A DNA stretch of 64,000 nucleotides from an uncultured virus (IMG/VR IMGVR_UViG_3300024429_000007). Lineage: Duplodnaviria; Heunggongvirae; Uroviricota; Caudoviricetes. Below are positions 13,746 to 57,806 of the stretch, piece after piece. Location: IMG/VR virus record IMGVR_UViG_3300024429_000007, positions 1 through 64,000 of that record; one strand, 5' to 3'. The notes under the pieces were generated by a model that was not told where the DNA came from, searched no databases, and saw nothing but the letters and a program-made list of their open reading frames with translations. Every line of letters starts with the position of its first letter. Position 1 is the first letter of the stretch. A program made the position numbers and the translations under genes.

Positions 13746-13776
13746 GCTCGGGCAATCGCCGCCCGGGCTTTTTTTT
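13746..13776 (+). terminator. intrinsic terminator at the convergent junction
   Basis: GCTCGGGC-7nt-GCCCGGGC stem followed by T8. Confidence 0.85.
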
Positions 13777-14137
13777 ATTCCCAAAATTTTTTTACGTTAT
13801 CTTTCCTTCGAATGCGAATATGCAGATGATTGATAGTCACGTGCCACCCGATATGAGTCACTACTTCAAATTTGTCCAGTTTCATCATTACCGGGAGTTG
13901 CAAAAGCAGACTGGCAGCCATCGCCAGATTTTTCGGAGTGCATTCGATATGTTTCTTCGGAATCAAAAGGATATCATCGGACTTGATGTCCTTGATCGCC
14001 ATTGCAAATTCGGTTTCAAAATATATCGTAGCCGGGGTTCTTTTAGCTCCGATCTCACAAAAGACGCATCCTGGTTTTTCTTTGAGTCCGTAAAGCATAT
14101 CGTTTTCAGGGTCTTTACCAGTCGGCGCGGTACTCAA
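13775..14137 (-). CDS. HIT-family nucleotide hydrolase, variant triad
   Basis: CVFCEI, DI, LLIPKKH, HLHIR. Confidence 0.8.
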   Translation of the reverse strand: MSTAPTGKDPENDMLYGLKEKPGCVFCEIGAKRTPATIYFETEFAMAIKDIKSDDILLIPKKHIECTPKNLAMAASLLLQLPVMMKLDKFEVVTHIGWHVTINHLHIRIRRKDNVKKFWE

Positions 14138-15467
14138 AGTTGGGCTTCAGGCCGAGTCCGGAAAATGCCCTCTCAAAGTCGATTGCCTCGACTAAATCGG
14201 GCAGACCAAGCAGATCGGATTTCCACGAAATGATTCCTGCGCTCCGAGCAAGATTCGTAAGTACTTCATTTGGAGTCGATCCGCTTTCCAGTTTTTTAAT
14301 TGCAGGTGGGCTTCCGATGAATTTGCTCAATTTGACTTGTCTGCGATCGACCACCATCCCATGAAAGAGATTGTTCGCCACGTATCCGATAAGCTTTCCG
14401 GCTTCTCTTTCCAACATTGTGAAGGGTGCGATGTCCGATCCTCTGATCGAGTGTGTGATCCCGGCCTTCTGATCGTCTAATGCCGAAGTGAAACAAAGAT
14501 CCGGAATTCTGTTGAAATAAATCGCAACGTCAAGCGGAGCTTCGGACCGAACTCTAAGAACGGTTCGAGCGTTACGCAGATTACCTTTCTTTTGTAGATC
14601 TCTGCAATGATCGTCGTAGTAGTACTCGCGCTTGATCTCGTGGCACAGTTCATTTACCTCAAGCGTAATAAAACGAGTCTTGACCGGAGCAAACGAGAGC
14701 TGGTCGGCGACGGCGCCCTCGTAAGCGCCATTCGTTCTCGATGAGACGCAGAAGTTATTTTCTCGGGTTATAGAGACAAGTCCCCCGATACACAGTCCAT
14801 CTGGAATGCGAAGCCTGTAAGATTTCACCGGGTAAAAATTCCACAGCACTTCTACCGCTCCGACCCAAACTTCTTGACCAAGATCGATAGTTAAGTGAGT
14901 ATCACGGGGAGGGTCGCACAGCGCACCGACTTCATACGCCTTCCAGGATCTTTCCGAACCGTCTGTGACGTTTTGAGCTTCATATCCCTTTGCTTCGGTG
15001 CTGGCTTGTACCTTTTGGCCCAACGCCACGTCTCGACGGGTCTCCGCTCGGTTGGCGTCGAACACTTTTATCCGCTGAATCTCGCAAGGACCGGGATATT
15101 TTTCTTCTCGGATCAGAGCCTTCAAGTTCGATTGGTCAAATCGGGTGCGCTCAAAAATATCGCCGGCCGTGCAATCGCAGAAATATACTCTCGGATCGCT
15201 TGCGATTTCCTCGATCTGCTGTCGGTACCATCCTCTGCTATCGCACTGCCAAATGATCCTGTCCGGACATAATCCGAAAGTTTCGAGATCCCGGATGAGG
15301 TCATCGCCAATCTTTCTTCGCTGGTCGCCCACCTTCTGTCCATCCAATCTAAGATAAAATAACCCTCCCTCTCGCTTGGCAAAGGCATAATTCAGAAGAG
15401 CGTTGTAGAGCGTCCCCAAATGCAAACTCCCACTCAGAGTCGGCGCAGCTCGGGTAATAACTTCCAT
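14115..15467 (-). CDS. glutamyl-tRNA synthetase catalytic-domain paralogue with inserted F5/8 type C (discoidin) domain
   Basis: TRAAPTLSGSLHLG (HIGH), YFCDCT, YDDHCR, DD..GITHSIRGSD, KLSK; insert VALGQKVQAS..AQNVTDG..W..LTIDLG..TRFITL. Confidence 0.85.
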   Translation of the reverse strand: MEVITRAAPTLSGSLHLGTLYNALLNYAFAKREGGLFYLRLDGQKVGDQRRKIGDDLIRDLETFGLCPDRIIWQCDSRGWYRQQIEEIASDPRVYFCDCTAGDIFERTRFDQSNLKALIREEKYPGPCEIQRIKVFDANRAETRRDVALGQKVQASTEAKGYEAQNVTDGSERSWKAYEVGALCDPPRDTHLTIDLGQEVWVGAVEVLWNFYPVKSYRLRIPDGLCIGGLVSITRENNFCVSSRTNGAYEGAVADQLSFAPVKTRFITLEVNELCHEIKREYYYDDHCRDLQKKGNLRNARTVLRVRSEAPLDVAIYFNRIPDLCFTSALDDQKAGITHSIRGSDIAPFTMLEREAGKLIGYVANNLFHGMVVDRRQVKLSKFIGSPPAIKKLESGSTPNEVLTNLARSAGIISWKSDLLGLPDLVEAIDFERAFSGLGLKPNFEYRADW

Positions 15468-15478
15468 CAGATCCTCCT

Positions 15479-16381
15479 TCAGCATCCATTGTATCCGCTG
15501 ATAACAGAAACGGTTCCGTCAGCATTATTTGTCACAAAAGCTTTCTCTAAACTCTCATCGCAAATAACTCCGTAAGGGACATCCCCGACATCAATAGTCG
15601 CCGAAACTGTATTCGACGCGGTATGGATAATGGATACCGTGTCCGAACCAGAATTAGCTACGAATACTTTTCCGGCAGTCTCATCACAAGCTACGCCGTA
15701 TGGCTCAACTCCAACTCCAATAGTGGCTGAAACAGTATTCGATGCGATGTGAATCACAGAGACCGAATTCGAATCACGATTTGTTACAAAGGCCTTCCCG
15801 GCGTTTTCGTCAACAGCAACTCTGTGAGACTGGACTCCCACATTTATTGTAGCGGAAACAGTATCTGATGCGGTGTGAATCACAGATACTGTCGCATCAC
15901 GACTAACCGAAAAAACTTTACCTGCTGACTCATCACACGCAATTCCAGGGTTGCTGCTTCCCACAAGAATTGTCGCAGAAACCGTATTCGTGGGAGTATG
16001 AATAACGGTGACTGCGGCCCAACTGTGAAGTGCAATATACGTCTTCCCGGCACTCTCGTCGCAATCAACGCCATCGGGATGTTTTCCTACAATTACGGTA
16101 GCTGAAACAGTGTTCGATGGCGTATGAATCACCGATACTGTATCTGTAGTCGATCCTGATCGATTCGTTACAAACGTCTTTTCCGCCGTTTCATCACACG
16201 CCACTCCAGTAGGCGTAATCCCTACTCCGATAGTGGCTGAAACAGTGTTAGACGTAGCATGGATAACGGATATGTTATCCGAACCTGAATTTGCCACAAA
16301 TACCTTTCCAAGTATTTCGTCACAAGCGAGCAAGAGCGGAGAAGTTCCAACTCCTATTGTCGCTTCAACCACGATTGCCAT
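15479..16381 (-). CDS. YVTN beta-propeller repeat protein (7 repeats)
   Basis: Repeated ATIGVG..P.GVACDE..GK.FV.N..S..VSVI. Confidence 0.9.
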   Translation of the reverse strand: MAIVVEATIGVGTSPLLLACDEILGKVFVANSGSDNISVIHATSNTVSATIGVGITPTGVACDETAEKTFVTNRSGSTTDTVSVIHTPSNTVSATVIVGKHPDGVDCDESAGKTYIALHSWAAVTVIHTPTNTVSATILVGSSNPGIACDESAGKVFSVSRDATVSVIHTASDTVSATINVGVQSHRVAVDENAGKAFVTNRDSNSVSVIHIASNTVSATIGVGVEPYGVACDETAGKVFVANSGSDTVSIIHTASNTVSATIDVGDVPYGVICDESLEKAFVTNNADGTVSVISGYNGC

Positions 16382-18317
16382 GTTGCCTCACCTCCTCAGA
16401 ATCTGACCGTATAAGCTTCAGATTCTGATTTTGTTTTGCATCGCGGACGATAGCCAGATTTCTTCTCGCGTCCTCCAACAGCGGATTGTAATTCAAGGCC
16501 TTCTCGTAGCATTCTTCTGCCTTATCGAGTTGTCCAAGATTGAAATGACAGCTACCGAGATTCACCCACGACTTATAGTTGTACACACCCAGATCCAAAG
16601 GAATGAAAGTATCGAATTGCGGCTTCAACTGAAGCGCATTTTCAAAAGCTGCTGCCGCTTTGTGAAAGACTTTTTTGTAGAAGTACGCCAATCCAATAAC
16701 CGCAAACGGCTCAGCTCGCAGATTCGTGCATTTGATCGCCTCATACCCATAATCAATCGCCTCATCGTACTCCTTCTCATCCAGATACAACTCGGCTAAG
16801 CCCAGAGCCGCCAGGTATCTGAAGTTGCTCTTAAACTTATCCAATGTCATAACCAATTTGTACCTGGTCTCTGCATCTTGAATTCGACCCGCTCCCTTGT
16901 AAGCCCGGGCGAGGTTGAAATTCACAAAGAGATCCTCCGGTTTCTCTTCGATTTCCCTCAAGAGAATCCGGATATTGAAATCGTGCTGTCCACTTTTATC
17001 CTTGAACTTTGCAATCTCCGGTCCGCCATGAATTATAGGAAGATTGACTTTCTGAAAATCATCTCCCCTTAAATCAAGGGTCTCATGCAGACGACTGCGA
17101 AAGCGATAGCTTCTCCGGTTTTTGACCAGACGAATTCGAGTGTTGATCAGAAGTAATTCGCCAGTGTCTCCGAGGCAATGCGTCGGGAAAGCAAAGGCGG
17201 TTGTTCCATTGGAATTTAGCGTCAGATTCTTAATCGCATCAGCTTGCTCTTTTTGGACGTAATCGTCGGCATCAAGCCAGCAAATCCATCCCGATTCGGC
17301 TTTAGAAAATGCAAAGTTCCTCGCAGCGGAAAAATCGTCACCCCACTCGTAGTCGAAGATCTTATCGGTGTATTCCCTTGCAACTTCCTTCGTTCGGTCG
17401 GTCGAGCCGGTATCCACGATTACAATTTCATCCGCGACTTCTTTCAAATTTTCTAAACATCTTGGCAAGGTCTTCTCTTCATCCTTCACAATCAGGCAGA
17501 AACCCAAGCTGTTGTCTTCCTCAAAAAGATCATCGACCTCTTCATCTCCCCACTTTTCTCTCAATATCGATTGATTACCGGTCAACTGCTTATCGAAATC
17601 AAATTCCGGATCTTTCTTCAATTCCTCGAAGGTTTGATGTCCGTAATGATATATGAAAACGTCTCGGGCGACTCCGAGTCTCCAGCCAGCTTTTCGTATT
17701 CGAATGGAATAGTCAAAGTCATCGCTGCAACCGATTCCGAAGGCTTCATCCAAAAGGCCAACCTCCTCCAGAACCTCCCGCCGCATCAGAACACAAATCC
17801 CAATGAGCAGTTTGGTATCGAGAAGTTGCCCTTTACACTTTTCGTAATTCTCCTGGGCGGCATCATTGATCTCTTCCGGAGTCAGTTTTCCAGTATCACC
17901 GGCTAACTGAGCCGCCTGTTTCCACATCACGAAGTTCGAACAGGGTCCCACTGCGCCGACTTCAGGATGCGCTTCGAGATGAGCTAACATCCGCTCGAAA
18001 CAAAATTCGGTTGCGACCATATCGTTGTTCATAAAACAAGCGAATGGAGCAACCGATTCTTTCAAGCCTTGATTTACAGCCTTGACAAATCCGAGATTCT
18101 CCTTGTTGTGGATGAACCGTACTCCGGACCTTTCCATCTCAAAGAGGTCTTGATCGAAGACATCGCTGCCATTATCGATCAAGGTCAGTTTATAGGGTAC
18201 CCGGACGTAAGAGAAGATGCTGCGAATACATTGCTTCGTCAGGCCATTCTGATTCCAGTACGGGATAATAATATCGACAATCGGCTCCTGAGTCAGATCT
18301 TTCGAGTTCAATTTCAA
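16365..18317 (-). CDS. double GT2 glycosyltransferase with TPR repeats
   Basis: IIIPYWN/IDNGS/NND/DDFD; CLIVKDEE/DTGSTD/DFSAARN/LDADD; C-terminal TPRs. Confidence 0.92.
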   Translation of the reverse strand: MKLNSKDLTQEPIVDIIIPYWNQNGLTKQCIRSIFSYVRVPYKLTLIDNGSDVFDQDLFEMERSGVRFIHNKENLGFVKAVNQGLKESVAPFACFMNNDMVATEFCFERMLAHLEAHPEVGAVGPCSNFVMWKQAAQLAGDTGKLTPEEINDAAQENYEKCKGQLLDTKLLIGICVLMRREVLEEVGLLDEAFGIGCSDDFDYSIRIRKAGWRLGVARDVFIYHYGHQTFEELKKDPEFDFDKQLTGNQSILREKWGDEEVDDLFEEDNSLGFCLIVKDEEKTLPRCLENLKEVADEIVIVDTGSTDRTKEVAREYTDKIFDYEWGDDFSAARNFAFSKAESGWICWLDADDYVQKEQADAIKNLTLNSNGTTAFAFPTHCLGDTGELLLINTRIRLVKNRRSYRFRSRLHETLDLRGDDFQKVNLPIIHGGPEIAKFKDKSGQHDFNIRILLREIEEKPEDLFVNFNLARAYKGAGRIQDAETRYKLVMTLDKFKSNFRYLAALGLAELYLDEKEYDEAIDYGYEAIKCTNLRAEPFAVIGLAYFYKKVFHKAAAAFENALQLKPQFDTFIPLDLGVYNYKSWVNLGSCHFNLGQLDKAEECYEKALNYNPLLEDARRNLAIVRDAKQNQNLKLIRSDSEEVRQHGNRG

Positions 18318-18741: not shown

Positions 18742-19890
18742 TCAGAGAAGCAGGAAATTATACGAATGAAGCTCGCCCGGGTCCGCAATAAAATAGAGAG
18801 GCGAGTCGGTCAATCGAATCGATCCTCCCGATACATCAATCGGTTGCCCAATTACACCGAAAACAGAAACGTCCTTAAATGGAAACTCTCGATCCATCTC
18901 CAGTCTTTCCGTAGTCCAGATTACGTGGATCTCCTTGTCATCTCTTTCGAAAACGAACCAGTTGATCTTGTCGGTGCACCAACGTTCCTCGACTGTTCGA
19001 CTGGGATACGCTTTCATCTGCGTTTTGAAGATCGCTCCCTTCAAGAAATCCTTGATCGTTCGCATCGCATAATAAGACGGCCTCGGCTTCCCTCTCGTGT
19101 CTAACAGACCCCACCCCAGATGTTTCAGGGCAAACCAGATCGCGTAATCGATCCCGACCGAATTGAAAAGCACGTGTTGTTTGACGAGAGAAATCGCCTG
19201 ACGCTCTGGGGTCTGGATAATGTGAAGGAATTTTGGATCTCCGGTACAGGGAACTCCGCATTCTGCGACGACGACAGGTTTCTCAACGCGGTACCAGGCG
19301 AGAATCTCATTGACTTTCGAAATCCCCTGAAGGATATTCTTTGTTCCTCCGTATCCGTAAGTATAGAAATTCAGGCTGATAAAGTCTAGCACCTGTCCAA
19401 TCCCAAGTGCAAAACAGTTCTCGAAAAACTGACTTCGATCCTCATTCCCAAAGCTGCCATTGAACGTCGGAGTAATCCACCCGCAGCCTCCGATTACGTT
19501 TTCAGGATCGATCTTTTTGCCCATCTCGTAGAACGTCCGAACCTGACGAACGAATTCCTCCTCGTCCCCCGAGAACCGGCACCCTGGCTGATCGGGACGA
19601 GTCTCTGGCTCTCCTCCGAAATCCCAAATCCGAATGAGGCCCCGATATTTCTCCAACACTTCCTTGAAGGCCGCGTGGGGAACGTTGTTCACGCCCACCG
19701 GCAGAATGAACTTACCGATCAGCCTCGTGTCCGAATCGATGACTGCTGCACAATCTTCGGGAGAGGGACTATTCAGGTGCAATGGAAGCTGGACCAAATC
19801 TGGATCAAGGTCGAAGATATGATCCTTGAATTTCGTCAAAACGCCAGCGACTGCAACTCCAAACTGATCAACGGTCCATTTTTGAATCAT
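18742..19890 (-). CDS. clan GH-A glycoside hydrolase-like protein
   Basis: IWDFGGEPE (NEP-like), DFISLNFY, KPVVVAECG, WGLL..G.PRPSYYA. Confidence 0.65.
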   Translation of the reverse strand: MIQKWTVDQFGVAVAGVLTKFKDHIFDLDPDLVQLPLHLNSPSPEDCAAVIDSDTRLIGKFILPVGVNNVPHAAFKEVLEKYRGLIRIWDFGGEPETRPDQPGCRFSGDEEEFVRQVRTFYEMGKKIDPENVIGGCGWITPTFNGSFGNEDRSQFFENCFALGIGQVLDFISLNFYTYGYGGTKNILQGISKVNEILAWYRVEKPVVVAECGVPCTGDPKFLHIIQTPERQAISLVKQHVLFNSVGIDYAIWFALKHLGWGLLDTRGKPRPSYYAMRTIKDFLKGAIFKTQMKAYPSRTVEERWCTDKINWFVFERDDKEIHVIWTTERLEMDREFPFKDVSVFGVIGQPIDVSGGSIRLTDSPLYFIADPGELHSYNFLLL

Positions 19891-19893
19891 AGC

Positions 19894-20700
19894 CTACTCC
19901 TTTATCTTTTCGGCAATGACCAACATCTCATCCATCTGCGACGATGGGAGTTTCCGGGATGTCTTAAACCCCTCCAACTTCAGCAAAAGATTCAGCGTGG
20001 AATGATCGTAGTGGAAACAATGCTGGTACAACGACCAGAAGGGATGCAGAGGATCATCTCCGTACTTCGCAGTATCCGGCATTTGGATAATCATGAGCAT
20101 ATTTTCCGAACTGTGCGTAAAGATCTTCCGAAGCAATTTCCGAGGATGCTGCGAATGTTCCAGACTATCCCAGAGCAGCACACAATCGAAAATCTCTTCA
20201 TTGTCCAGAACGAGTTCGTCCATGTCCTGACACCGGAGTTCCAGGCCCAAATGCTCTCTGCCCCAATCCACTGCCCACTTAGAGAACTCGATTCCAACGA
20301 CTCTCCATCCCCGATCGAAATACGGTTTGCTCATGTGCCCGGTGGCGCACCCGAAATCGATCAACGAACAGGGCTTCCGGGTTTTGTCTTTCCAACGTCT
20401 ATTGAACCAAGAGAGAGTAAGCTTCCCGAAGTAAATCTTCGCTCCGAGGTGATCTTCCTCGATGTAATTCGGGTACCCGATGCACCCTTTGGGATCGGCG
20501 ATGTAGTACTCTTTTTTATGATACGCCTTTCGATCCGCCGCGGAGATGTTCGGGTTGAAAAAAAGCAGCCCGCATTCTTCGCACCGCTCGACTTTTAATG
20601 GCTGTTCCTGAGCCCAGTTGTTCGGCGGGCATTCGAACAGAAATTCGGACTTCGTTCGATGGTCGTGTAAGGGACAATGGACTTCGATCAGCTCAGGCAT
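19894..20700 (-). CDS. class I SAM-dependent methyltransferase
   Basis: CEECGLLF, LIDFGCATG, LEH. Confidence 0.88.
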   Translation of the reverse strand: MPELIEVHCPLHDHRTKSEFLFECPPNNWAQEQPLKVERCEECGLLFFNPNISAADRKAYHKKEYYIADPKGCIGYPNYIEEDHLGAKIYFGKLTLSWFNRRWKDKTRKPCSLIDFGCATGHMSKPYFDRGWRVVGIEFSKWAVDWGREHLGLELRCQDMDELVLDNEEIFDCVLLWDSLEHSQHPRKLLRKIFTHSSENMLMIIQMPDTAKYGDDPLHPFWSLYQHCFHYDHSTLNLLLKLEGFKTSRKLPSSQMDEMLVIAEKIKE

Positions 20701-20711
20701 TTTTCTCCTCC

Positions 20712-21215
20712 TCAAAAATAAGTCGCTTCGGTTAAACCAACAATTGCATCTATCTTCTCGGTTCCTTCGCTGAGCATCAGCATAGACCGGTGAAAGCCAT
20801 CAATGACTTCGAATTCTCCGTTCAACTTCTCAGAAAATTTCTGCACAACCGTAATCTTTTGTTTCTCTGGGTGAATTGAACCGGTCCCATGAGTAATCCG
20901 TTTGCTACAATCTCGAAGATTCCCATTCCACTTTCTCAAGAGCGGATTCCAAATCGGATCCACGGCGGTCACGCAGAGTTCCTTCGTAGACAGACTGATC
21001 TCGACCCATTCGACAATCTGCTCATTTCTCCTATCGGTCTTGTAGCCAAGCGTCCAGACTCCAAAGGGATTCACCTGTCTATTGTGGAAGCATTGACTAC
21101 GAACAAGTTGCTCTAATACTCGATCATCTCGGATCGTTTTCCCAGATTCCAAGAATAGAAAATAACGTAAAACGTCTGAAAAAGCAAGGCATTTTTTTGC
21201 AATATAGTTTTTCAT
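20712..21215 (-). CDS. ParB/Srx-like domain protein
   Basis: EVIDGFHR motif. Confidence 0.55.
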   Translation of the reverse strand: MKNYIAKKCLAFSDVLRYFLFLESGKTIRDDRVLEQLVRSQCFHNRQVNPFGVWTLGYKTDRRNEQIVEWVEISLSTKELCVTAVDPIWNPLLRKWNGNLRDCSKRITHGTGSIHPEKQKITVVQKFSEKLNGEFEVIDGFHRSMLMLSEGTEKIDAIVGLTEATYF

Positions 21216-22345
21216 CGTTGCTGACTTTTCCGAAATGGGATAATATCCTGCGGATTCAGATCTAATGGAACTTCATCTCCCTTGATAATATCGGCATATA
21301 GATCTGTTACGTCTTCCAGGCTGTAACGTTCCAAGCACCATGTACGCGCCCACGCAGATCTACTAATTCGCTTTTTTTGGACTTTGGGCAACCACCCATA
21401 CCCATCCACATACCTCAATGGCGGGGATTGCTTTTTCAAATAATTCACCAACTCCACATCGTCTTGAAAAATGCACTCCACTGGGTGCATCTCATCCGCA
21501 CCTGGCCAATTAAATATCACCGGCACGCACCCGCAGAGCATTCCTTCCGTAATTGCAGCGTGCCAACTTTCATCCTCAGAGAAACTGATTACAAAATCAA
21601 TATCAGCAAACCACTTTATAACCGCATCTCCACTCACATGGTCAAGAACCTGGATACGATCCGAAGATCGAACTACAGACTCAAGTTCAGCAATGTAATC
21701 TGGAAAGTGTGTTCGATCATTTTCCTCAAAACCAAGCAAGCTCAACGAAAAATTCGGTGAAAGACAATTCGCTTCCGTCCAACGATTAGATATTGGATAT
21801 TCCATTGCTAATGGCCCATCGAGCAATTTAGCAAATTCGACAACTCGTTTCCGTGGAATACACCGGCCCAACATACCTAATCTCCGACCATAGTCACGCT
21901 GATTTATGAAATCATTCAAAAACCGCCAGTGCTGTTCATCTACCAATCTGGGTACAGTTATACATCGTTCCTGCATATCATCCAGAACATTTGCAACACA
22001 ATTCTCAAGGAAAAGATTCCTGTAATGATTACTCATGAACAGAACTGCGGAGGCATTCTCCCAATAGTAGAACGGTGAATTCTCATGCCAGACATCGCCG
22101 CGATGCGTTCGTACAATAATCCGCTTCTCTGGAAAATTCTCCAGATAAAACTGCGCCCACGCCAATCCCCAATCCACAAAAATTACATCCGCCCATTTCG
22201 CCAAGCTCCTTTGGACATAATCTCGTGGATGCTCACGGTCAAGAAAATTACAGCTAAACCGTTGCGACATGATTGCCTTAAATCTCTTTGGAACAAACTG
22301 CCACAACCCGCCAGCATCGAATAATACCTTCAGTTTATGCTCCAT
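21212..22345 (-). CDS. GT4-family glycosyltransferase
   Basis: ESWHAAITEGMLCGCVPV (Ex7E). Confidence 0.85.
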   Translation of the reverse strand: MEHKLKVLFDAGGLWQFVPKRFKAIMSQRFSCNFLDREHPRDYVQRSLAKWADVIFVDWGLAWAQFYLENFPEKRIIVRTHRGDVWHENSPFYYWENASAVLFMSNHYRNLFLENCVANVLDDMQERCITVPRLVDEQHWRFLNDFINQRDYGRRLGMLGRCIPRKRVVEFAKLLDGPLAMEYPISNRWTEANCLSPNFSLSLLGFEENDRTHFPDYIAELESVVRSSDRIQVLDHVSGDAVIKWFADIDFVISFSEDESWHAAITEGMLCGCVPVIFNWPGADEMHPVECIFQDDVELVNYLKKQSPPLRYVDGYGWLPKVQKKRISRSAWARTWCLERYSLEDVTDLYADIIKGDEVPLDLNPQDIIPFRKSQQR

Positions 22346-22358
22346 CGGAATCCTTCTT

Positions 22359-22997
22359 TCATTGATATACTTCTACTCGGAATTCACCTACCCAATCGAA
22401 AACAGTCTCCCGGAATCGGTGAGGAAGATTAACACGGCTTTTTTTTGCATTTGCGAATAGAACATAATCCTTCCAGGCCTTCACGGCAGAACTATCGATT
22501 ACTTCGTTCCATAATGCAGAAGAAAGGAAAGTCGGCTTCTTTTCAAAAACCAAAGTATTCGTATAAAAAGAAACCAACCAGTAGTGGTATGGTAGAGGAT
22601 GAAGCATCTCTTTGAAAGGCGATGGCGTCTTGATCCGGCCACGTGCACCGATTCGCATCAATTCTTCGCAGGCCGCTTTTGGATCGAGAATATGTTCAAG
22701 GATATGAGAACACCAGATAAAATCAAAGCTTTCGCTCCTGAAGGGCAGCGCCTCAACTCCGGACAGCAAAAACTTCCGACCTTGATATACCGGAATCAGA
22801 TCAGGATTCATATCGACCAGTACATCCGCCCGGGGGAATGCCGATTCAGTAAGCTGAACCCGAGGAGCACCCGGACCGCATCCAATATCCAGTACGCGAT
22901 CATCTTCCCAGATTCCGTAATCTAAAGCAATTTCATCTCTCGTCCAGCGCGGACGATGCTCTTTCGCTCTCGGTCCCAGATCGGCAAGCGTTACCAT
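22359..22997 (-). CDS. SAM-dependent methyltransferase (type 11)
   Basis: VLDIGCG, LPF..FD, SHILEH. Confidence 0.88.
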   Translation of the reverse strand: MVTLADLGPRAKEHRPRWTRDEIALDYGIWEDDRVLDIGCGPGAPRVQLTESAFPRADVLVDMNPDLIPVYQGRKFLLSGVEALPFRSESFDFIWCSHILEHILDPKAACEELMRIGARGRIKTPSPFKEMLHPLPYHYWLVSFYTNTLVFEKKPTFLSSALWNEVIDSSAVKAWKDYVLFANAKKSRVNLPHRFRETVFDWVGEFRVEVYQ

Positions 22998-23962
22998 CCC
23001 AATTCCTCAGCACTCTTTCCATAGTACGGATGCTCCAACATAACCACAGGATAAGTCCCAGTAAATTTTTCGAGATGTTCTTCGACCGACTCATCGTAAA
23101 TTCCAGTCCAGATTTTATGATACGTTTGATAGTACTCCATGATTTCTCCGTCGTTCGATTCAAGGATCGGTGCACACCATCGCTTCATTCTTTCGTCGCC
23201 ACCGCCTCGTGCAACCAGGTTTCGAGTCGCATGCGCCCATCGCAGAATATGTCGTTCCATTTTCTCCGGAGTATGCACCCATCCGAAGTGTAGAATATCA
23301 AAGAGACCGGCCGGCTCGAAAAGATATAGTTTTTCGCCTTTCTTGTCAAGCGTTTTTAATTCTTGGAATCGAGTACGCCGAAGACCCAATTCCATTTTCT
23401 GGCCAAGTCGATAAGGTCGTTGTCCAAGAATCTCAATGTCGGGGAGATATTTCCAAAAAAGCCCGGAGTCGATATAGTTACACATCTGAAGATAATCTTC
23501 TCCGACTGTGAGGATATGATTCAAATCGAGGAAAAACATCAACTCTTTCGCCGCGATCATCCAGATTGAAGGATATCCGATTACCAGATTCCGGAGACAT
23601 TGGATCTCTCTTGGTCGATACACCGCGTCCGAATCCAAGATTAAACAATAATCTGTATTCGAACTGACATTCTGATGGCAATGTCTTCGCAAGTCATTTA
23701 CCGATTGCTGCCAACCGTACCGGATGTACTTGATCTTATGATCTGCGTCTTCATCGAGCATGCGTTGAATCTCCGCCTGTGTACCGTCGGTTGAGAGACC
23801 TTCTTCGGTTAAAAACCCTTGCTCGATTGCCTCTCTTCCATATCGATTTCGGGCGGCGCCCTCCACGATGACGATCTCTTCGACCACATCATAGATCGAC
23901 TTCAGCGCGAAGTAAACGTAATCCTCTTCGTTAATCACCACCATCTGAACTGTGAGCTTCAT
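22991..23962 (-). CDS. GT2-like glycosyltransferase, paralogue 1
   Basis: NEEDY..LKSIYD..VEG, STDGT, LDSD, HFGWV. Confidence 0.82.
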   Translation of the reverse strand: MKLTVQMVVINEEDYVYFALKSIYDVVEEIVIVEGAARNRYGREAIEQGFLTEEGLSTDGTQAEIQRMLDEDADHKIKYIRYGWQQSVNDLRRHCHQNVSSNTDYCLILDSDAVYRPREIQCLRNLVIGYPSIWMIAAKELMFFLDLNHILTVGEDYLQMCNYIDSGLFWKYLPDIEILGQRPYRLGQKMELGLRRTRFQELKTLDKKGEKLYLFEPAGLFDILHFGWVHTPEKMERHILRWAHATRNLVARGGGDERMKRWCAPILESNDGEIMEYYQTYHKIWTGIYDESVEEHLEKFTGTYPVVMLEHPYYGKSAEELGW

Positions 23963-24650
23963 TTGTCCCTCTTTTGAGATACCGGATGCTGTCTGTACCA
24001 CAATTAAAAAATAGATCAAGAATGGACAACCCGGGGATGAACTCATTTCCGAGTTGAGGGTACTCGAATTGTTGAAAGCTCGAATACGTCAGGCGAAATC
24101 CGGAATCCTCGAAATTCTCAGCGATTTGATAACTCCTCGCTCCGTTACCCGAGAGATATTCACTGCCTCCGACAGCTCTCAAGATTTCAATGATCCTGTT
24201 CTCTTTCGTCGCTTGAACTTTCAAATCGGAAGCAAGGATGAACTCAGATCCGATTCCGAACACTCTCGCAAGAACCTGAATCAACTCTATGTTCAGATCA
24301 CAGAGCTTTTCGTAAGGCCTTCGTAGTACGCACTCGATGACCGGAAACCAACGCTCAAAGTACTCCGCCTTGCCATAATTCTGCTGAAGCGTCCGCACCA
24401 TTTTCGGTCGCCACGGAGTATTCACTATCTCGACACTCTGAATCTTCTGCCCGGAGCGCCCCTTCGTCCGAATGGGAACGGTGAGCCATTGGGGTCCCCT
24501 CGGCGTCCAGATGCTGCAACGATTGGTGAAGCTACCCTTTGAAAATGGAACATCGTCCAGAAAGACGAAGATATCGCAGTGTGCCATCTTGTAAAAATAG
24601 CCGAGCCAGGGAGCAAAGTTGGGCTGGTGTATGGCGACGGTGCAACTCAT
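23931..24650 (-). CDS. WbqC-like protein
   Basis: AIHQPNFAPWLGYFYK, FVFLDD, NR, WLTVP, YLSG, LSILDL. Confidence 0.92.
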   Translation of the reverse strand: MSCTVAIHQPNFAPWLGYFYKMAHCDIFVFLDDVPFSKGSFTNRCSIWTPRGPQWLTVPIRTKGRSGQKIQSVEIVNTPWRPKMVRTLQQNYGKAEYFERWFPVIECVLRRPYEKLCDLNIELIQVLARVFGIGSEFILASDLKVQATKENRIIEILRAVGGSEYLSGNGARSYQIAENFEDSGFRLTYSSFQQFEYPQLGNEFIPGLSILDLFFNCGTDSIRYLKRGTNEAHSSDGGD

Positions 24651-24662
24651 CAGTACCTCCTC

Positions 24663-25322
24663 TCAGGACCTTCTTCGATTGGTTTCAAGAGCTTGGGGAT
24701 ACTTGGTGAAATCCGGCCGATAAAGAAAGATCGTGAAGTCATTTTCTTTGTAGGTGTGATCTAAAAAGGCCCCTCGCGGAGAAATCTCTTTTGTAAGAAG
24801 TGTGAATATCTCGCCTGGATCCGAATAAAAGGAATCGAGGTCCCGGCCCAGCCCGAACTTGCTCAGAAAATTTACCCCGACCCCAATCCGACAGAGGGCG
24901 TACATCTTTGTCACAATCTCAATCACCCTAGCATGCCAGTCTTTTTCATCTAAGGCAAACAATCCCGATCCAAAGACGAAATCAAATTGGTCATCGAAAT
25001 TCAGCCCGCGCACGTCGAATATCAAAAAGCTATGGCATGGGTGTTTCTTTCGGGCAATTTGAATCGCCGCTTCAACGAGATCGCAACCCAAGTACCGAGC
25101 GATCTGATACTCTTCTTCGATCAGAAATTTGAGAAAATCTCCCGTTCCACATCCAACGTCCAAAATCGATCTAGTATCGAGATCTCCGATCCGAGTCAGC
25201 GCTCGGAATCTTACCTCTTGCGACTCCTGGCTATTCCAGAAAGTCTCTGGAGAATCACCAAGTTTCCTGAACCGGTCTGTATAGTACTTCAAATTTCTAT
25301 CGGATAATCCAGTGAATTGCAT
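24663..25322 (-). CDS. class I SAM-dependent methyltransferase
   Basis: W.S..SQ..RF, ILDVGCGTG. Confidence 0.88.
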   Translation of the reverse strand: MQFTGLSDRNLKYYTDRFRKLGDSPETFWNSQESQEVRFRALTRIGDLDTRSILDVGCGTGDFLKFLIEEEYQIARYLGCDLVEAAIQIARKKHPCHSFLIFDVRGLNFDDQFDFVFGSGLFALDEKDWHARVIEIVTKMYALCRIGVGVNFLSKFGLGRDLDSFYSDPGEIFTLLTKEISPRGAFLDHTYKENDFTIFLYRPDFTKYPQALETNRRRS

Positions 25323-25926
25323 TGAAGGCCTCCGCGTATTGAGTCCCGATCTGACCACCTCGTGCGCGAACGAGACTCCGGATAAAATCTTCATTGATGT
25401 AATCCCTTCCCAACTGTGAGAAGTAGCATTTCAACGCTCGGATCTTCAACTCGATGAATTGCTCCTCCAGAAAGATGAAACATTCTGTCCTGAAGGATAA
25501 GTTGTTCCAGGGAATTTCGTATCCAAGAAGAGTTGATTTCTTGAAGGCGCGGAATCCTTCGGCTGCAATAACCTGATGATCCTGATGTGTATCATCTGCC
25601 GAGGGCAGAAAGACCAAATCCGGTTCGATTACGTCTCTCAGTTCGATCATATCTTCGAGAATACTTTGACGATGAGCAGGGAAATCCCGGACTTCGTAAT
25701 CGAAAAGAATCAGATTCTCTCTTGTAATCCCAAGCGCAGCGGTTGCCTTTTTAACTTCCTCTCGGAGAATCCCTTTTGGCAACTCGGGTGGAACAGATTT
25801 CTCGGCAGATGAGAAAGCCACATAGAAGACTTCTTTATCTTCAGCGAGAAATCGAGCCAGACTACCACCACAACCGAATTCGCAATCGTCGGTATGTGGA
25901 CTCAGCGCCAGTATTCGCTGAACCAT
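25297..25926 (-). CDS. PIG-L/LmbE-family deacetylase
   Basis: PHTDD, HQDH, YE.PW, SQ, AEAF. Confidence 0.92.
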   Translation of the reverse strand: MVQRILALSPHTDDCEFGCGGSLARFLAEDKEVFYVAFSSAEKSVPPELPKGILREEVKKATAALGITRENLILFDYEVRDFPAHRQSILEDMIELRDVIEPDLVFLPSADDTHQDHQVIAAEGFRAFKKSTLLGYEIPWNNLSFRTECFIFLEEQFIELKIRALKCYFSQLGRDYINEDFIRSLVRARGGQIGTQYAEAFNAIHWIIR

Positions 25927-25927
25927 T

Positions 25928-26431
25928 TCAGTATGTCCTTTCTCTGCTCTTAACTCCTCTGTATCCGAATTCTTCCCACGTTCCCCTTGCTTCGCCTCGC
26001 GCTACGAGATATTCGAGAGATACAAAATCTGCTCGATTCAACAAATTTCTTAGGGACCCTCGCCAGAACATACATTTGTGCGCCATAAAGGGACTGGCAT
26101 CGGGATCATATCCAAAAATCACTATGTTAAGCCACTCGTACTCACATTCTCCATGAGTCCAACGATGGAAGGCCTCAAGAGCATTGGGAACATAGACCGT
26201 AATTTTGCCTTCTGCCTTCAGTACACGATTCCACTCTTGAAGGATAACAATCGAAGACTCCTGACGAAAATGCTCCAGAATATGGGACGCCCAGAGTTCA
26301 TCGGCAACTGTATCCTGAAATGGAAGAAATTGCGCATCGGCTACGACATCGGGTCGGAGCGATCGGTCAAGATCGATTACAACCCACTCATTCCGCCGTG
26401 CGCCTCCTCCGATGTCCAGTTTAAGCCTCAT
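25928..26431 (-). CDS. SAM-dependent methyltransferase (type 11)
   Basis: LDIGGG, LPF, SHILEH, RVLK. Confidence 0.85.
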   Translation of the reverse strand: MRLKLDIGGGARRNEWVVIDLDRSLRPDVVADAQFLPFQDTVADELWASHILEHFRQESSIVILQEWNRVLKAEGKITVYVPNALEAFHRWTHGECEYEWLNIVIFGYDPDASPFMAHKCMFWRGSLRNLLNRADFVSLEYLVARGEARGTWEEFGYRGVKSRERTY

Positions 26432-26437
26432 TTAAAA

Positions 26438-26644
26438 TTATATACCCCAGAGCTTTCCTTGCAGTGACCAGAGTCTTACTTGCGCCTCTCGAAGAAATTC
26501 CTGCATTTCAGTTTCGACTTCTTGAAGCTCCTCTTCGCTTAATACTTCGACCAGTTTACTTAAACGATTCAAGTCCCGCAAGACTTTCTTTTGAATATCT
26601 AATATCGACTTCGCTCGATCACTTACTCCCAGATCTTTCGACAT
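26438..26644 (-). CDS. small coiled-coil protein
   Basis: GAGG RBS; fills the gap. Confidence 0.6.
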   Translation of the reverse strand: MSKDLGVSDRAKSILDIQKKVLRDLNRLSKLVEVLSEEELQEVETEMQEFLREAQVRLWSLQGKLWGI

Positions 26645-26664
26645 GCGGGTACCTCTTCAACAAT

Positions 26665-27660
26665 TCAGTCCCACCATTTCAAATCGTAGAAAGGAGACCT
26701 CTGATCACCCTCGGGGTCCTCGTGTCTGAACCACTCTTCCGGTTTATCGAAATAAGGATGTTTCTGAATCAGCCCATCGAGAGGATACGATCCCTTGAAC
26801 TCATCCACATGTTCAACATCGGTATCTAAGACCTTGGTATAGAATTTGTGGTACATCCTCAGCCAGTCCATCAGCGTCTCCCGTCGCCGATCAGGAAGTA
26901 CGAGACGGTTCTTCTCCATCGTCTGTGGAGCGAAAAACTTCCGCATGAGCTGAACTTCCATTCGCTCCTTCAACTGGACATTTCCAAAGTGGAATACGTC
27001 CAGCAAGTCGGGACTGTAAACAATGTATTTCTGATCTCCGTACTCATATTCACGAAGACGCAAAAAATCAATCCAGTCAATCTTGGTTCGTTCACTGGTA
27101 CTCCCGTCACCGAACCAAATTGTTCGTTCTCTTTCAAAATACATCGTCGGGTTATACCTGAAAAAACACCAACGCCAATAATCCTTTCGTTCTATTCCAG
27201 TATGTAGGACGTGCCGGAAGTCCCAGATAAATGACCAACAGTATTCCGCCACTTCATAAACTTGGGGATATGTCTTTAAGACTTTTTTTGCCTTCAGAAT
27301 ATTTCTTGGCTTAAAGAGACAATCCCCATCCTGAATGAGTTCGATGTCGGTATCCTCGGGCAACATCGAGTGCGCTTTGTTCCGAAGATCCTCCCAACTG
27401 TGCACAAAGCCAACTTGTTCATAATGCACCTTCCCTTCGGGATCGTCATTGGCAATGAACCTTTGGACTTCCTCGCCAGTATTATCCAACGATAGCCCCT
27501 CACTTGTTGCAGGAACGTGGTCGTACTTATTATGGAAAACATCGTGCGTGATCGCACCCTCAACAACGGCGATGTAATCGACTGCCGGATATGATGATTT
27601 TAAGGCCCAGTAAACATAAGGCTGGTCATTGAGAGTAAGCATGTGACAACCAATTTTCAC
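26665..27660 (-). CDS. GT2-like glycosyltransferase, paralogue 2 (homologous to the CRISPR spacer)
   Basis: GTG start at 27660 with AGGAG RBS; NDQPY..LKSSYPAVD..VEG, DGD, HFGNV. Confidence 0.82.
   Translation of the reverse strand: MKIGCHMLTLNDQPYVYWALKSSYPAVDYIAVVEGAITHDVFHNKYDHVPATSEGLSLDNTGEEVQRFIANDDPEGKVHYEQVGFVHSWEDLRNKAHSMLPEDTDIELIQDGDCLFKPRNILKAKKVLKTYPQVYEVAEYCWSFIWDFRHVLHTGIERKDYWRWCFFRYNPTMYFERERTIWFGDGSTSERTKIDWIDFLRLREYEYGDQKYIVYSPDLLDVFHFGNVQLKERMEVQLMRKFFAPQTMEKNRLVLPDRRRETLMDWLRMYHKFYTKVLDTDVEHVDEFKGSYPLDGLIQKHPYFDKPEEWFRHEDPEGDQRSPFYDLKWWD
27565..27600 (-). other. resident protospacer-homologous segment (27/36 nt identical to spacer, all differences synonymous), preceded by TTA
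   Basis: AAA TCA TCA TAT CCG GCA GTC GAT TAC ATC GCC GTT versus spacer AAG AGT TCG TAT CCC GCT GTC GAT TAC ATC GCA GTA. Confidence 0.9.
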
Positions 27661-27692
27661 TATATCATCTCCTGATGCTGCCAGTGAACGAT

Positions 27693-27802
27693 GTTTCAAT
27701 CCTTGTTTTAATGGATAGCGTTCTTAAACTACTGCGATGTAATCGACAGCGGGATACGAACTCTTATTTCAATCCTTATTTTGATGGATAGCGCTCTTAA
27801 AC
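27693..27802 (-). CRISPR. CRISPR mini-array: two 37-bp repeats, one 36-bp spacer (27730-27765)
   Basis: Repeats GTTTAAGAGCGCTATCCATCAAAATAAGGATTGAAAT and GTTTAAGAACGCTATCCATTAAAACAAGGATTGAAAC (33/37 identical), with the ATTGAAAC 3' handle. Confidence 0.9.
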
Positions 27803-27808
27803 TTTCCT

Positions 27809-28810
27809 TTATAGTCCTTCTTCCAGTCCAAACCAATGCTTACTCTTTCCAAAAAATGGATGACTGCGAAGCATCTGATCCATCGGATACTTACCTAAAT
27901 ACGGAACAACTCGCTCTCCAACTTTGTCATCGAAAATACCTGTCCAGATCTTGTGATACAATCGGTGATAATCCAAGATCTCCTCGGCACTCATATCTAT
28001 AAATGGCATCCAATAGTTTCGGTCCGTATCCGTGACTTTCTCTGGATCGTGTTTCAGAAGCCATTGCAACCTGAGCACTCTCGACCAAGTCGTCTTCAGC
28101 AGATGCGCCTCTATCGCCATTCTACGCCCAACCCATCCAAAATGCCAGAACTGAAACATCGGCGGATATACTGCGACATCATCTTTCGTTCCTTCCAACT
28201 GATCGGGGCGAACCTCGAGGATCGGATGCAACCAGCCCTCCGGTTCAAACTGGTTATCGAAAAAAGAAATCTCCCCCTTATATCTCAATCGCTCATCGTA
28301 TCGGTAGAAGAGACACGCCAAATGATGACCATACGGCCGCTTGTATTCTTCATTGATCTGGAGAACATGGTGCATATCCAGAAAGAAGATCAATTGATCG
28401 GAATAGACGACTCGAATGTTTGGATACTGTTCACAGAGACTCTTAACCTGCTGAAGTTGCGACTCATCATACAGATGATCCGCATCTGCCACTAAAATAT
28501 AATCCGTATCCTTCGGGCACTCCCGTAAAGCAAGCTCTCTCAGCGTTCCAATCGTCGGCTGGAATCCAGCCTGGATATACTTAATCTTACCTTCCGAATC
28601 GTATTCTTCGATAAACCTCTCAATCTCTCCCTCCGTATTATCAAGTGACAATCCAAACCGATCGAAAGAACCAAATTCCTTCCATTTATCTTTAGCCACA
28701 CCTTCCACTATGACGATATGATCCACTACATCGTAGATCGATCTCAGCGACCACCAGACCCAATCCTCTTCATTTATTACAATCATCAATGCTGTAAGTT
28801 TCAAAGCCAT
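27809..28810 (-). CDS. GT2-like glycosyltransferase, paralogue 3
   Basis: NEEDW..LRSIYD..VEG, DAD, HFGWV, YHKIWTG. Confidence 0.82.
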   Translation of the reverse strand: MALKLTALMIVINEEDWVWWSLRSIYDVVDHIVIVEGVAKDKWKEFGSFDRFGLSLDNTEGEIERFIEEYDSEGKIKYIQAGFQPTIGTLRELALRECPKDTDYILVADADHLYDESQLQQVKSLCEQYPNIRVVYSDQLIFFLDMHHVLQINEEYKRPYGHHLACLFYRYDERLRYKGEISFFDNQFEPEGWLHPILEVRPDQLEGTKDDVAVYPPMFQFWHFGWVGRRMAIEAHLLKTTWSRVLRLQWLLKHDPEKVTDTDRNYWMPFIDMSAEEILDYHRLYHKIWTGIFDDKVGERVVPYLGKYPMDQMLRSHPFFGKSKHWFGLEEGL

Positions 28811-29796
28811 CCGAAGTCCCTCCTCTGCATGCCGAAGAAGGGATGATCTTTCATTGGAAGCGGATGCTCTCCCACTGCCTCCCACAAGATTTGGTCGCAT
28901 CGGATCCGATTGACCTTCGATGGAGGAAATTTTTGAAGAACATCTTCATCGGGCAAGATCCCCGTCCAGATCGGATTATACGTTTCGATGAACTCGGTTA
29001 GCTCCTGATCCGAAGATTCAGCCCGAACATTCAGCCCGGAATACGCATCAGATCTGCGATACGTCTGAAGAACCCGCTCGATCATCTTTTCACGTTTCCG
29101 AACCCACCCGTAATGATACTGTGGAATTACCCGCTTTCGCAATGTAATTCCATCGAGCCCTTGTTCCTGTGCATCTTTGATTCCTGTTTCGATGTCATCT
29201 TGAGCAATCCAAGGTAGCCACCAATTTATCAGAGGTTCGCCCTCGAAGTAAGGATTGTGTTCAGCGCTTTTCTCGGGATAGTACTCTCCTGGATAGAACT
29301 TTCTGAACATCGTTCCGCCAGTCGGTTCCAATTTGCCCATTTTCTTTGAAATCCGGCGAGTCCAGAAGTCCAGATAAAAATGGATCCGATCCACAGCAAC
29401 GCCACACAATCTCGGATGATCCGAGAACATCTGCCGAACTCGCAAAATGTCCAACGCCTTGTAACATTCATCCGCATCTACGTTGAGGAAATGAGTGGTC
29501 TCTCGTGGAAAAAGATCCACTGCATGGTTTGCCAATTCCGCGTAGTTTTTCGCAAAACCGTATTTGTAATTCCAAACCTTTCCATCCGGATCGTCGTTGG
29601 CGATGAATCGTTCAATCTCCTCGGAGCTACGATCTATCGAGAGTCCGGATTTGGAATAAAAACCCTCAATCCTTCCGTACTCTCCGATACATCCTTCGAC
29701 GATCACAATTGCATCGACAGCATCGTACATCGACTTTAGAACGTACCAGATATAGTCCTCTTCGTTCAGGAACAGTACTCGAGCTGTCAGAAACAT
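28801..29796 (-). CDS. GT2-like glycosyltransferase, paralogue 4
   Basis: NEEDY..LKSMYD..VEG, DADE, HYGWV, IWTG. Confidence 0.82.
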   Translation of the reverse strand: MFLTARVLFLNEEDYIWYVLKSMYDAVDAIVIVEGCIGEYGRIEGFYSKSGLSIDRSSEEIERFIANDDPDGKVWNYKYGFAKNYAELANHAVDLFPRETTHFLNVDADECYKALDILRVRQMFSDHPRLCGVAVDRIHFYLDFWTRRISKKMGKLEPTGGTMFRKFYPGEYYPEKSAEHNPYFEGEPLINWWLPWIAQDDIETGIKDAQEQGLDGITLRKRVIPQYHYGWVRKREKMIERVLQTYRRSDAYSGLNVRAESSDQELTEFIETYNPIWTGILPDEDVLQKFPPSKVNRIRCDQILWEAVGEHPLPMKDHPFFGMQRRDFGWL

Positions 29797-30755
29797 CCAA
29801 TATCCTCCAATGTGTTAATCACCATTTCAACGGTGATCTTCTTGAGACACTGGCGATAATGAGGCCGCTTATGACAAGCATGCGTCTGCCAGTCCCAACA
29901 TGGATTGCAGTCAACTCTTAAACTGAGACCGGTAGTTTTGGGATAGTACCCGATCCGAAACTCCGGTGGGATCGGTCCGAATAAGGCGACCGAAGGAATT
30001 TGGAGAAGGCCTGCCAGGTGCATAATGCCCGAATCTGGACAAACGAGATACTCACAAAACGAGAGCAACCCCAACAGATCGATCAAGGCGGTCTTGTCAG
30101 GCACAATTACGTGATCGAATTTCCGAAATTGCTCTCGGACTGCATGACTCTCCAAAATCAAAATCTTCCATCCCTCTCGGTCCGATAACCGCTCAACCAA
30201 TTCAAGATTGCGTTCCACGGGCCAGGTTCGAATAGCGGAATATGCCATCAGGTGTAAACCGAACAACTTTTCACCTCGCCAACCTGCCCTTTGCAGAATT
30301 GTTCTTGCCTTTACAATTTCGCTCTTCAAAATCGGAAAGTCGAACCGCGGACAGTAACATTGAGGATTTAGCTCCAGTAATCTCGCAAAGAGATCTTGCC
30401 TCGGTGCTTCGCAGCAGATTGGAAGAAAATCAACTTTGTTCTGGAGATCGACTACCAGGTCGTATCGTCCTTTCACCTCGGCCTGCTTTTCATTCACCAA
30501 ACGGTCGATGAAATCGAATCGTCGAAGCAACGGAAAGAAGATTGGTGAAGTCCCGAAGACCAGTTTCGTCTTCGGTCCGTACTTTCCCTTCAATGCCTTC
30601 AAAGCAGGTAAAACCTGCAAGACATCGCCAAGACCCCGAAATCGTTTCACCAGAACTGCGGACTGCTTTCCTTTTCCGGTTCTGAAACCAGCATTGAAAA
30701 GTTGAATCTCTTCAGACATAGTTCTGGAATCCGGGACATCCCTTGTACGCGGCAT
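29787..30755 (-). CDS. GT9 (heptosyltransferase-like) glycosyltransferase
   Basis: RGLGDV, DSGIMHLA, VALFGP. Confidence 0.9.
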   Translation of the reverse strand: MPRTRDVPDSRTMSEEIQLFNAGFRTGKGKQSAVLVKRFRGLGDVLQVLPALKALKGKYGPKTKLVFGTSPIFFPLLRRFDFIDRLVNEKQAEVKGRYDLVVDLQNKVDFLPICCEAPRQDLFARLLELNPQCYCPRFDFPILKSEIVKARTILQRAGWRGEKLFGLHLMAYSAIRTWPVERNLELVERLSDREGWKILILESHAVREQFRKFDHVIVPDKTALIDLLGLLSFCEYLVCPDSGIMHLAGLLQIPSVALFGPIPPEFRIGYYPKTTGLSLRVDCNPCWDWQTHACHKRPHYRQCLKKITVEMVINTLEDIGCF

Positions 30756-57797: not shown

Positions 57798-57806
57798 CTC
57801 TTCTCC

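Follow-up and report, generated by a model that had tools for sequence, protein, structure and literature searches.

The question raised by this locus is which substrate and which acceptor are served by a GluRS paralogue that is encoded beside phage glycosylation genes and split by a discoidin domain. The DNA analyzed, hereafter the window, is a stretch of 64,000 nt from an uncultured virus. Tape measure and head-tail adaptor genes within it identify tailed-phage DNA, a 117,770-bp record matching the window carries a terminase and a portal, and an amidase gene points to a bacterial host. The paralogue (P0001) is an open reading frame of 450 aa on the minus strand (14115..15467), with a Shine-Dalgarno AAGGAGG (15473..15479, minus strand) placed 5 nt ahead of the ATG at 15467. 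Promoter and terminator scans gave signals near the level of shuffled sequence.

Domain architecture and predicted structure

A preliminary description had proposed a truncated GluRS paralogue with HIGH- and KMSKS-like motifs, no anticodon-binding domain and a discoidin domain in the zinc-binding region, and this domain split was borne out by both profiles and structure prediction. Pfam tRNA-synt_1c matched residues 2-116 with an E of 1e-18, and GluRSs of the PDB aligned to P0001 as two blocks, at residues ~3-114 and ~319-432. An AlphaFold2 model built from 15 homologues (mean pLDDT 88) matched GluRS and GluQ-RS cores with Z of 22-24; the match to GluQ-RS 4a91 reached Z 23.3 over 258 residues with an rmsd of 2.5. 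The two signature motifs read HLGT (residues 16-19) and KLSK (379-382). Only 68 residues follow KLSK in P0001, compared with a family median of 64 and with 223 in long GluRS-like proteins, so there is no anticodon-binding domain; these residues form a short helical C-terminal tail (383-450; 14118..14321).

All features of the paralogue lie on the minus strand. The Rossmann-fold N-terminal half (residues 1-96; 15180..15467) contains R6, A8, P9, T10, HLGT and R40-L-D42-G43. It is followed by the first half of the zinc motif, C97-x-C99 (15171..15179), and by a family-specific RxEKYP motif (residues 120-125; 15093..15110), which stands directly ahead of the insert and whose EKY is also present in the insert-less member P0028. 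Beyond the insert lie the second half of the zinc motif, Y284-x3-C288 (14604..14618), and the C-terminal half of the catalytic core (residues 302-382; 14322..14564), in which the spacer between R305 and D313 is shortened by deletion of a hairpin and which carries L324, S328, D331-D332, R342-G-x-D345, E353, H369 and KLSK.

The insert (residues ~128-277; 14637..15086) is predicted to be a CBM32/discoidin-type beta-sandwich and has conserved W175, G181, P213, F259 and P261. Pfam F5_F8_type_C (PF00754) matched residues 153-272 with an E of 4.5e-4, which is under the gathering cut-off: the gathering score is 28.2, the window protein scored 20.8-24.8 bits, and the homologues L007 and P0018 reached 28.8. 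Matches to PF00754 at E<=0.1 were obtained for 5 of 13 inserts. The best fold and profile matches of the insert were CBM32s, with model residues ~141-278 aligning to 4zxe with a Z of 14.4 (113 residues, rmsd 2.4) and to 2v72 with a Z of 14.2 (118 residues, rmsd 2.1). When the insert was folded alone from a single sequence, the model was poor (pLDDT 51), and the same folds ranked at the top with Z of about 6. On the strength of the full-length model, a discoidin beta-sandwich is assigned to residues ~141-278, for which carbohydrate binding is only presumed.

The insert was correctly placed between the two halves of the zinc motif by the preliminary description, but its size of ~170 aa was not accurate, since the spacer from C99 to Y284 measures 184 aa and the insert accounts for ~150 of these. 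Zinc ligands C97, C99 and C288 are kept despite this 184-residue spacer, which measures 43 in insert-less P0028. In bacterial GluRS and GluQ-RS the zinc motif is described as CxCx(11-28)Yx3C, and its domain serves to place the acceptor arm of the tRNA (PMC4381286). Searches of the ESM Atlas gave no usable match for P0001, and among the 50 matches listed for BFVD, synthetases and discoidin proteins appeared separately, none of them named with both. An architecture arising by chance or artefact was ruled out, as 14 further near-full-length homologues and additional relatives carry the insert at one position.

Family, phylogeny and distribution

The first homologue search returned 17 proteins, comprising the query, 14 near-full-length relatives and two ordinary partial matches. 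A further search added relatives, and 27 members were aligned with fragments left out, giving a mean column identity of ~33%. An insert of 132-160 aa occurs at the same position in 25 of the 27 and is absent in P0028 and P0030. A quick maximum-likelihood tree was calculated from insert-free cores with 67 rows, namely the 27 family members, 18 of 47 short and 22 of 61 long GluRS-like proteins. The family formed one long-branched clade (SH-aLRT 99) that was separate from the short GluQ-RS-like clade (SH-aLRT 99). Because P0028 and P0030 nest within the family clade, loss of the insert is likelier than its ancestral absence, and a role of the insert-less members as ancestors was set aside. An archaeal origin of the clade appears doubtful: its link to the sole archaeal GluRS in the tree is through a long branch alone (support 91), and its zinc motif is of the bacterial type.

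Profile scores also place the family outside the known groups. Against the GluQ-RS models TIGR03838 (cut-off 276.7 bits) and NF004314 (cut-off 256 bits), P0001 scored 93 and 89 bits, and P0028 99.5 and 103 bits, respectively. For TIGR00464 and TIGR00463, P0001 scored 62 and 53 bits versus cut-offs of 290 and 402. P0001, P0028 and P0030 were all far under every GluQ-RS, GltX and GlnS cut-off, which the controls P0043, P0042 and P0079 passed.

Judged from the sequences retrieved, the clade is so far seen only in phages, several of which are mutually unrelated. At least four terminase families (phrog_38, 2/9, 675 and 17415, the last in L019) occur among the carriers, whose capsid proteins also differ, and no structural protein was common to all of them. 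Neither the paralogue nor its conserved glycoside hydrolase partner (GH-A, see below) was found in motif-seeded scans of 185,579 cellular genomes, a search that divergent copies can escape. GenBank phages yielded only four partial N-terminal matches to the paralogue, and no viral locus was found for insert-less P0028. A literature search covering titles and the starts of abstracts returned no description of the paralogue family among the papers listed.

Active site and acceptor side

The 27 members were compared with 108 GluRS-like matches, which were grouped by length and are mostly without individual annotation. H16, G18, C97, C99, C288, K379, S381 and K382 are present in all 27 members, followed by Y284, R6 and R342 in 26, D332 in 25 and S/T10 in 24. 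The insert is much more variable than these ATP, zinc and Arg/Arg/Asp residues. Arg5, Arg205 and Asp195 are described as the main glutamate-recognition residues of GluRS (PMC2978374), and their equivalents in the family are R6, R342 and D332.

From RLDG in place of RIED and PDL in place of PTY, the preliminary description had concluded that the substrate pocket was altered. Both motifs are present, but the conclusion was overstated, as Arg, Arg and Asp are kept. The Asp that replaces Glu in RxD occurs in 27 of 27 members and also in 29 of the 108 ordinary GluRS/GluQ-RS-like homologues, and the replacement of Tyr by Leu (L324), likewise found in all 27, has a parallel in many archaeal GluRSs, in which Tyr187 is Met or Leu (PMC2978374). 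Of the six glutamate contacts reported for GluQ-RS (PMC12736043), the family retains four (R, A, S/T, R), has Asp for Glu at a fifth and has lost the sixth, a Tyr. With the Arg/Arg/Asp triad kept, glutamate is probably the substrate. The retained acid residue argues for an alpha-amino acid over any carboxylate, and since the Tyr-to-Leu and Glu-to-Asp exchanges change the pocket, another acidic amino acid is possible.

The family-specific changes appear from the alignment to sit on the tRNA-acceptor side. G43 is found in 24 of 27 members where relatives have D in 102 of 108, D45 (103 of 108 relatives) is lost, and the DTD motif is lost in the family. The DxxxG hairpin of the CP domain is present in 2 of 27 members versus 87 of 108 relatives, with a median spacer of 8 versus 27. 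Both the DTD motif and the hairpin presumably contact the tRNA acceptor end. Further family-specific features are N22, S328, F349, E353 (Q in 94 of 108 relatives), H369 and the RxEKYP motif.

Gene neighbourhood and the conserved partner

Viral and metagenome scans recovered 21 loci in 11 groups, of which the 8 with more than 7 kb of DNA are referred to as long. The suggested tie to glycosylation genes was upheld, with glycosyltransferases, methyltransferases and sugar-modifying genes found together in 7 of the 8 long groups. In the exception (L019/L020) the paralogue lies before the terminase, and the DNA covered holds neither a glycosyltransferase nor a GH. A position at the end of a glycosylation island, as first described, is therefore right for the window but not general, as the gene lies near the start of the island in L016/L017.

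In the window, the paralogue is on the structural-gene strand, opposite to the DNA-metabolism genes. The island, all on the minus strand, continues with a beta-propeller repeat protein (YNCE-like; 15479..16381), a double GT2 + TPR glycosyltransferase (16365..18317) that stands between the paralogue and the GH-A partner (18742..19890), and a remainder (19894..30755) of methyltransferases, GT4, GT2-like paralogues, WbqC, PIG-L and GT9. A GT2-TPR gene is located among the head-tail genes. The propeller gene adjoins homologues of the paralogue only in the window's own group and in L006. MshB is the PIG-L deacetylase partner of MshC. The PIG-L deacetylase of the window (25297-25926, minus strand) has counterparts in few carriers: the family occurs in 1 of 6 viral records and in L012 and is absent from a 98%-complete record, most records being incomplete. 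There is thus apparently no fixed MshB/MshC-like pair, although a host enzyme might take the place of PIG-L, and such a pairing with the island PIG-L was dismissed as not general. The HIT gene downstream of the paralogue was also dropped as a candidate adenylate-handling partner, as it lies beside no homologue.

An all-versus-all comparison of the loci identified the GH-A partner as one non-glycosyltransferase family that is present in 6 of the 8 long groups. The reverse scan with the GH recovered six viral contigs (one of the phage in the window, two that are near-duplicates and three more), all six of which carry the paralogue. Nothing was common to all six whole viral records except the paralogue, the GH and a chained GT2/methyltransferase cluster. 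Neither the paralogue nor the GH was found in six control phage records, which were chosen by GT9 or WbqC and were 13-100% complete with four under 35%, while the positive control had both.

For protein sets, pairing was assigned by identical size of the longest contig, which is a weak proxy. By this proxy, 10 of 11 GH proteins on contigs >50 kb pair with a paralogue and 9 of 12 paralogues pair with a GH; at a threshold of 10 kb, 9 of 22 other paralogue records pair, with a GH set that is incomplete and missed L006. The pairwise identities of paralogue and GH correlate with a rho of 0.65 (12 pairs, 5 through the contig-size proxy) and, with 3 near-copies removed, of 0.46 (p 0.03, 9 pairs), a correlation that shared descent alone can produce. 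For insert-less P0028 and P0030 (contigs of 67,070 and 39,288 bp), no size-matched GH was seen in this incomplete search. Loss of the insert and of the GH may be coupled.

The partner (382 aa) matched the PslG profile with an E of 0.002 and, in the Atlas, matched clusters containing GH5/GH39/GH42 families (feature matches 0.95-0.97, TM about 0.8); it had no match among Pfam or NCBIfam families. Based on these matches and its motifs, it is assigned a clan GH-A (PslG/GH39/GH5-like) TIM-barrel fold with two catalytic-type Glu. E94 (GGEP) and E210 (ECG) are invariant in 7 of 7 homologues, and from clan GH-A motifs we take them to be the acid/base and the nucleophile. In clan GH-A an Asn normally precedes the acid/base Glu (NEP). 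NEP was found in none of 47 partner homologues, 37 of which match GEP[E/D] and most of which have GGEP or WGEP. Without the Asn, the site may have space for a sugar substituted at C2. The predicted complex of paralogue and partner scored 0.00, which is evidence neither way. The partner and the hairpin deletion go beyond what the preliminary description contained.

Comparison with known systems

Like GluQ-RS/YadB (4a91; TIGR03838), the family consists of a GluRS catalytic domain with no anticodon domain, and the two share the CxC...Yx3C ligands and the Arg/Ala/Ser(Thr)/acid/Arg glutamate contacts. Unlike GluQ-RS, the family has the ~150-aa CBM32 within the zinc motif, has lost the CP hairpin and the DTD motif, and has Leu at the position of Tyr172; it also forms a separate clade under all family cut-offs and occurs in phage glycosylation islands with no TGT. 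GltX (TIGR00464; 3pnv, 2cfo) shares the Rossmann core, the HIGH/KMSKS-type motifs, the bacterial-type zinc motif and Arg5/Arg205/Asp195, whereas the family lacks the anticodon domain and has a rebuilt acceptor-binding domain.

The closest precedent for how the family may work is MshC of the mycothiol pathway (3c8z), described as a class I synthetase paralogue that, independently of tRNA, hands an activated amino acid on to an acceptor with a sugar in it (PMC9437257). In contrast to the family, MshC is CysRS-derived, cellular and without a CBM, and it matches P0001 with a Z of 13.7 and 12% identity. By tree, profile scores, domain content and fold, the family is a member of neither GluQ-RS, MshC nor GltX; by analogy, we infer that it works like GluQ-RS in its chemistry, and it is probably like MshC in its logic.

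The CBM32/F5-8 type C modules 4zxe (chitosan-binding DD1), 2v72 (NanJ CBM32) and 4a42 resemble the insert in fold (Z about 14, rmsd 2.1-2.4), but the module of the family, unlike known CBM32s, is embedded in an aaRS zinc knuckle. The partner resembles PslG/GH39-like members of clan GH-A in its two invariant Glu and differs from them in lacking NEP, in being phage-borne and in standing outside Pfam and NCBIfam. In mycobacteriophages, phage glycosyltransferases are described to modify capsid and tail-tube proteins (Freeman et al. 2023 via PMC12619734, PMC10877033). That system, as described there, involves neither an aminoacyl ligase nor a GH-A partner, and the present islands differ from this description in their large size and in their methyltransferases and enzymes of sugar modification.

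Proposed function and alternative explanations

The best reading of the paralogue is a phage-specific ligase derived from the catalytic domain of a bacterial-type GluRS. We lean towards a tRNA-independent enzyme that would make Glu-AMP and acylate a phage-made glycan, with both its activity and its acceptor being putative. It would first bind ATP and, most likely, L-glutamate and form glutamyl-AMP, as the conserved residues suggest; tRNA-independent formation of Glu-AMP is reported for GluQ-RS (PMC12736043). With the domain for placing the tRNA acceptor arm rebuilt, the acceptor in the second step would be a carbohydrate supplied by the neighbouring glycosyltransferases. It is the loss of the DTD motif and the beta-hairpin, together with the CBM32 in the zinc knuckle, from which the acceptor is read as a carbohydrate. 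The simplest chemistry would be an ester on a sugar hydroxyl, with an MshC-like amide on an amino sugar as the alternative. The esters formed by GluRS and GluQ-RS are on ribose and on the diol of queuosine, respectively.

In a third and weakest step, the GH-A enzyme would cut, trim or transfer the same glycan, and the product would decorate virion proteins. A virion location is suggested by the island on the structural-gene strand, the GT2-TPR gene among the head-tail genes and the mycobacteriophage precedent; the glycan may instead sit on the host surface or on DNA. A wider idea, tentative and rather doubtful, is that the glycan glutamyl-transferase and a dedicated GH-A enzyme, which may be trimming or transglycosylating, form a mobile two-gene module by which tailed phages unrelated to one another decorate their particles with amino-acylated glycans. 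No precedent for virion modification by amino-acylated glycans was found in the searches made.

A different acceptor would be a protein, be it the GH partner, a carrier protein or a component of the virion, acylated in the manner of the LysRS paralogue PoxA/EpmA, which acts on EF-P (PMC3950694); the discoidin domain would then serve for protein docking and the island be a virion-modification neighbourhood. Discoidin folds do occur in non-lectins (IFT25, 2yc2, matches the P0001 model with Z 13.0), the residues through which known CBM32s bind sugars were not identified as a conserved set across the inserts, and one group carries the gene beside a terminase without glycosyltransferases. We nevertheless regard a protein acceptor as unlikely, as the sole non-glycosyltransferase family in all six whole records has a glycosidase fold and the carriers, with their differing terminases and capsids, share no structural protein. 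Acylation of a soluble precursor, such as an NDP-amino-sugar or a small glycoside, before its use by a glycosyltransferase seems improbable. It would follow the example of MshC, the class I paralogue that joins Cys to the amine of glucosamine (PMC9437257), and genes that fit it occur in several islands, with DegT aminotransferases in L016 and G006, PIG-L in the window and L012, and WbqC in the window and L006. However, no amine-generating enzyme is common to the carriers, as the distribution of PIG-L illustrates, and a CBM with a glycosidase would suit a polymer better than a nucleotide sugar.

A GluQ-RS-like enzyme that adds glutamate to a modified base of host tRNA or of (possibly glycosylated) phage DNA is quite improbable, although the top profile scores are those of GluQ-RS models (93 vs 277 bits, far under the cut-off), the domain span and the CxC..Yx3C zinc ligands are as in GluQ-RS, and phage glycosyltransferases can modify DNA (PMC12619734). 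Against it stand the separation from the short GluQ-RS-like clade and the loss of the hairpin and DTD residues, which most short GluQ-RS-like proteins keep. Base-modification genes are also scarce in the carriers: TGT was found in 0 of 6 records, tRNAs in 1 of 6, QueC over its cut-off in 0 of 5 and the thymidylate-synthase family in 1 of 5, and the paralogue lies on the strand opposite to DNA metabolism. Searches with Tet_JBP and ADDT gave no match anywhere, controls included. The two changed glutamate contacts out of six could also indicate a catalytically degraded scaffold or lectin, or else an accessory GluRS whose anticodon domain is supplied by a partner. This is very improbable, given that the ATP, zinc and Arg/Arg/Asp residues are near-invariant beside a far more variable insert, and that the anticodon domain is missing and the acceptor-arm features are lost.

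The glycan-acylating ligase would extend what is known of such paralogues, since YadB is the only GluRS-paralogue function in the account of a review (PMC9437257). The family is a second, independent GluRS-paralogue clade, so far phage-only, with a lectin-type domain where tRNA would be positioned. If the glycan-acylating reading is true, phages put amino acids on their own glycans and so add a chemical layer to virion glycosylation. The family would then clearly exemplify how inserting a domain can rewire an enzyme of translation, and it might supply an ATP-dependent catalyst for the amino-acylation of sugars.

Additional features of the locus and related records

The HIT-family ORF (13775-14137, minus strand) overlaps the end of the paralogue and matches HIT proteins of the PDB with an E of 2e-8. 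Its triad reads N-H-L-H-I-R and is apparently one histidine short. The WbqC-like gene (23931-24650, minus strand), which also occurs in L006, encodes what we take to be a putative glycine transferase and may offer a second amino-acyl-sugar route in the island. Four GT2-like paralogues with a conserved EG...G.S.D motif are located at 22991-24046, 26665-27699, 27809-28900 and 28801-29796 (all minus strand), two of them without a Pfam match, and the same family is found in L002, L006 and L016. The island of record G006 (L038-L040) is very large, with glycosyltransferase ORFs numbering well above a dozen, and also holds DegT, a pyruvyl transferase, acyltransferases of the hexapeptide type and long proteins with collagen repeats.

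Among the DNA methyltransferases, on the strand opposite to the island, lies a thymidylate-synthase-family gene (5167-6099, plus strand). Between the portal and the head genes (54744-60376, minus strand), a 1017-aa protein with an adenine-methyltransferase domain, a protein with an ATP-dependent DNA ligase domain and a 383-aa ORF were identified, and ORFs related to this set occur in L002. Genome C1 has, beyond the window, short tandem repeats close to the end of the contig (69800-71287), which show up as repeated peptides in translated ORFs. A tail-region protein (38811-41186, minus strand) combines CBM96 and beta-propeller domains, and related propeller repeats are found at 15479-16381 and 18333-18725.
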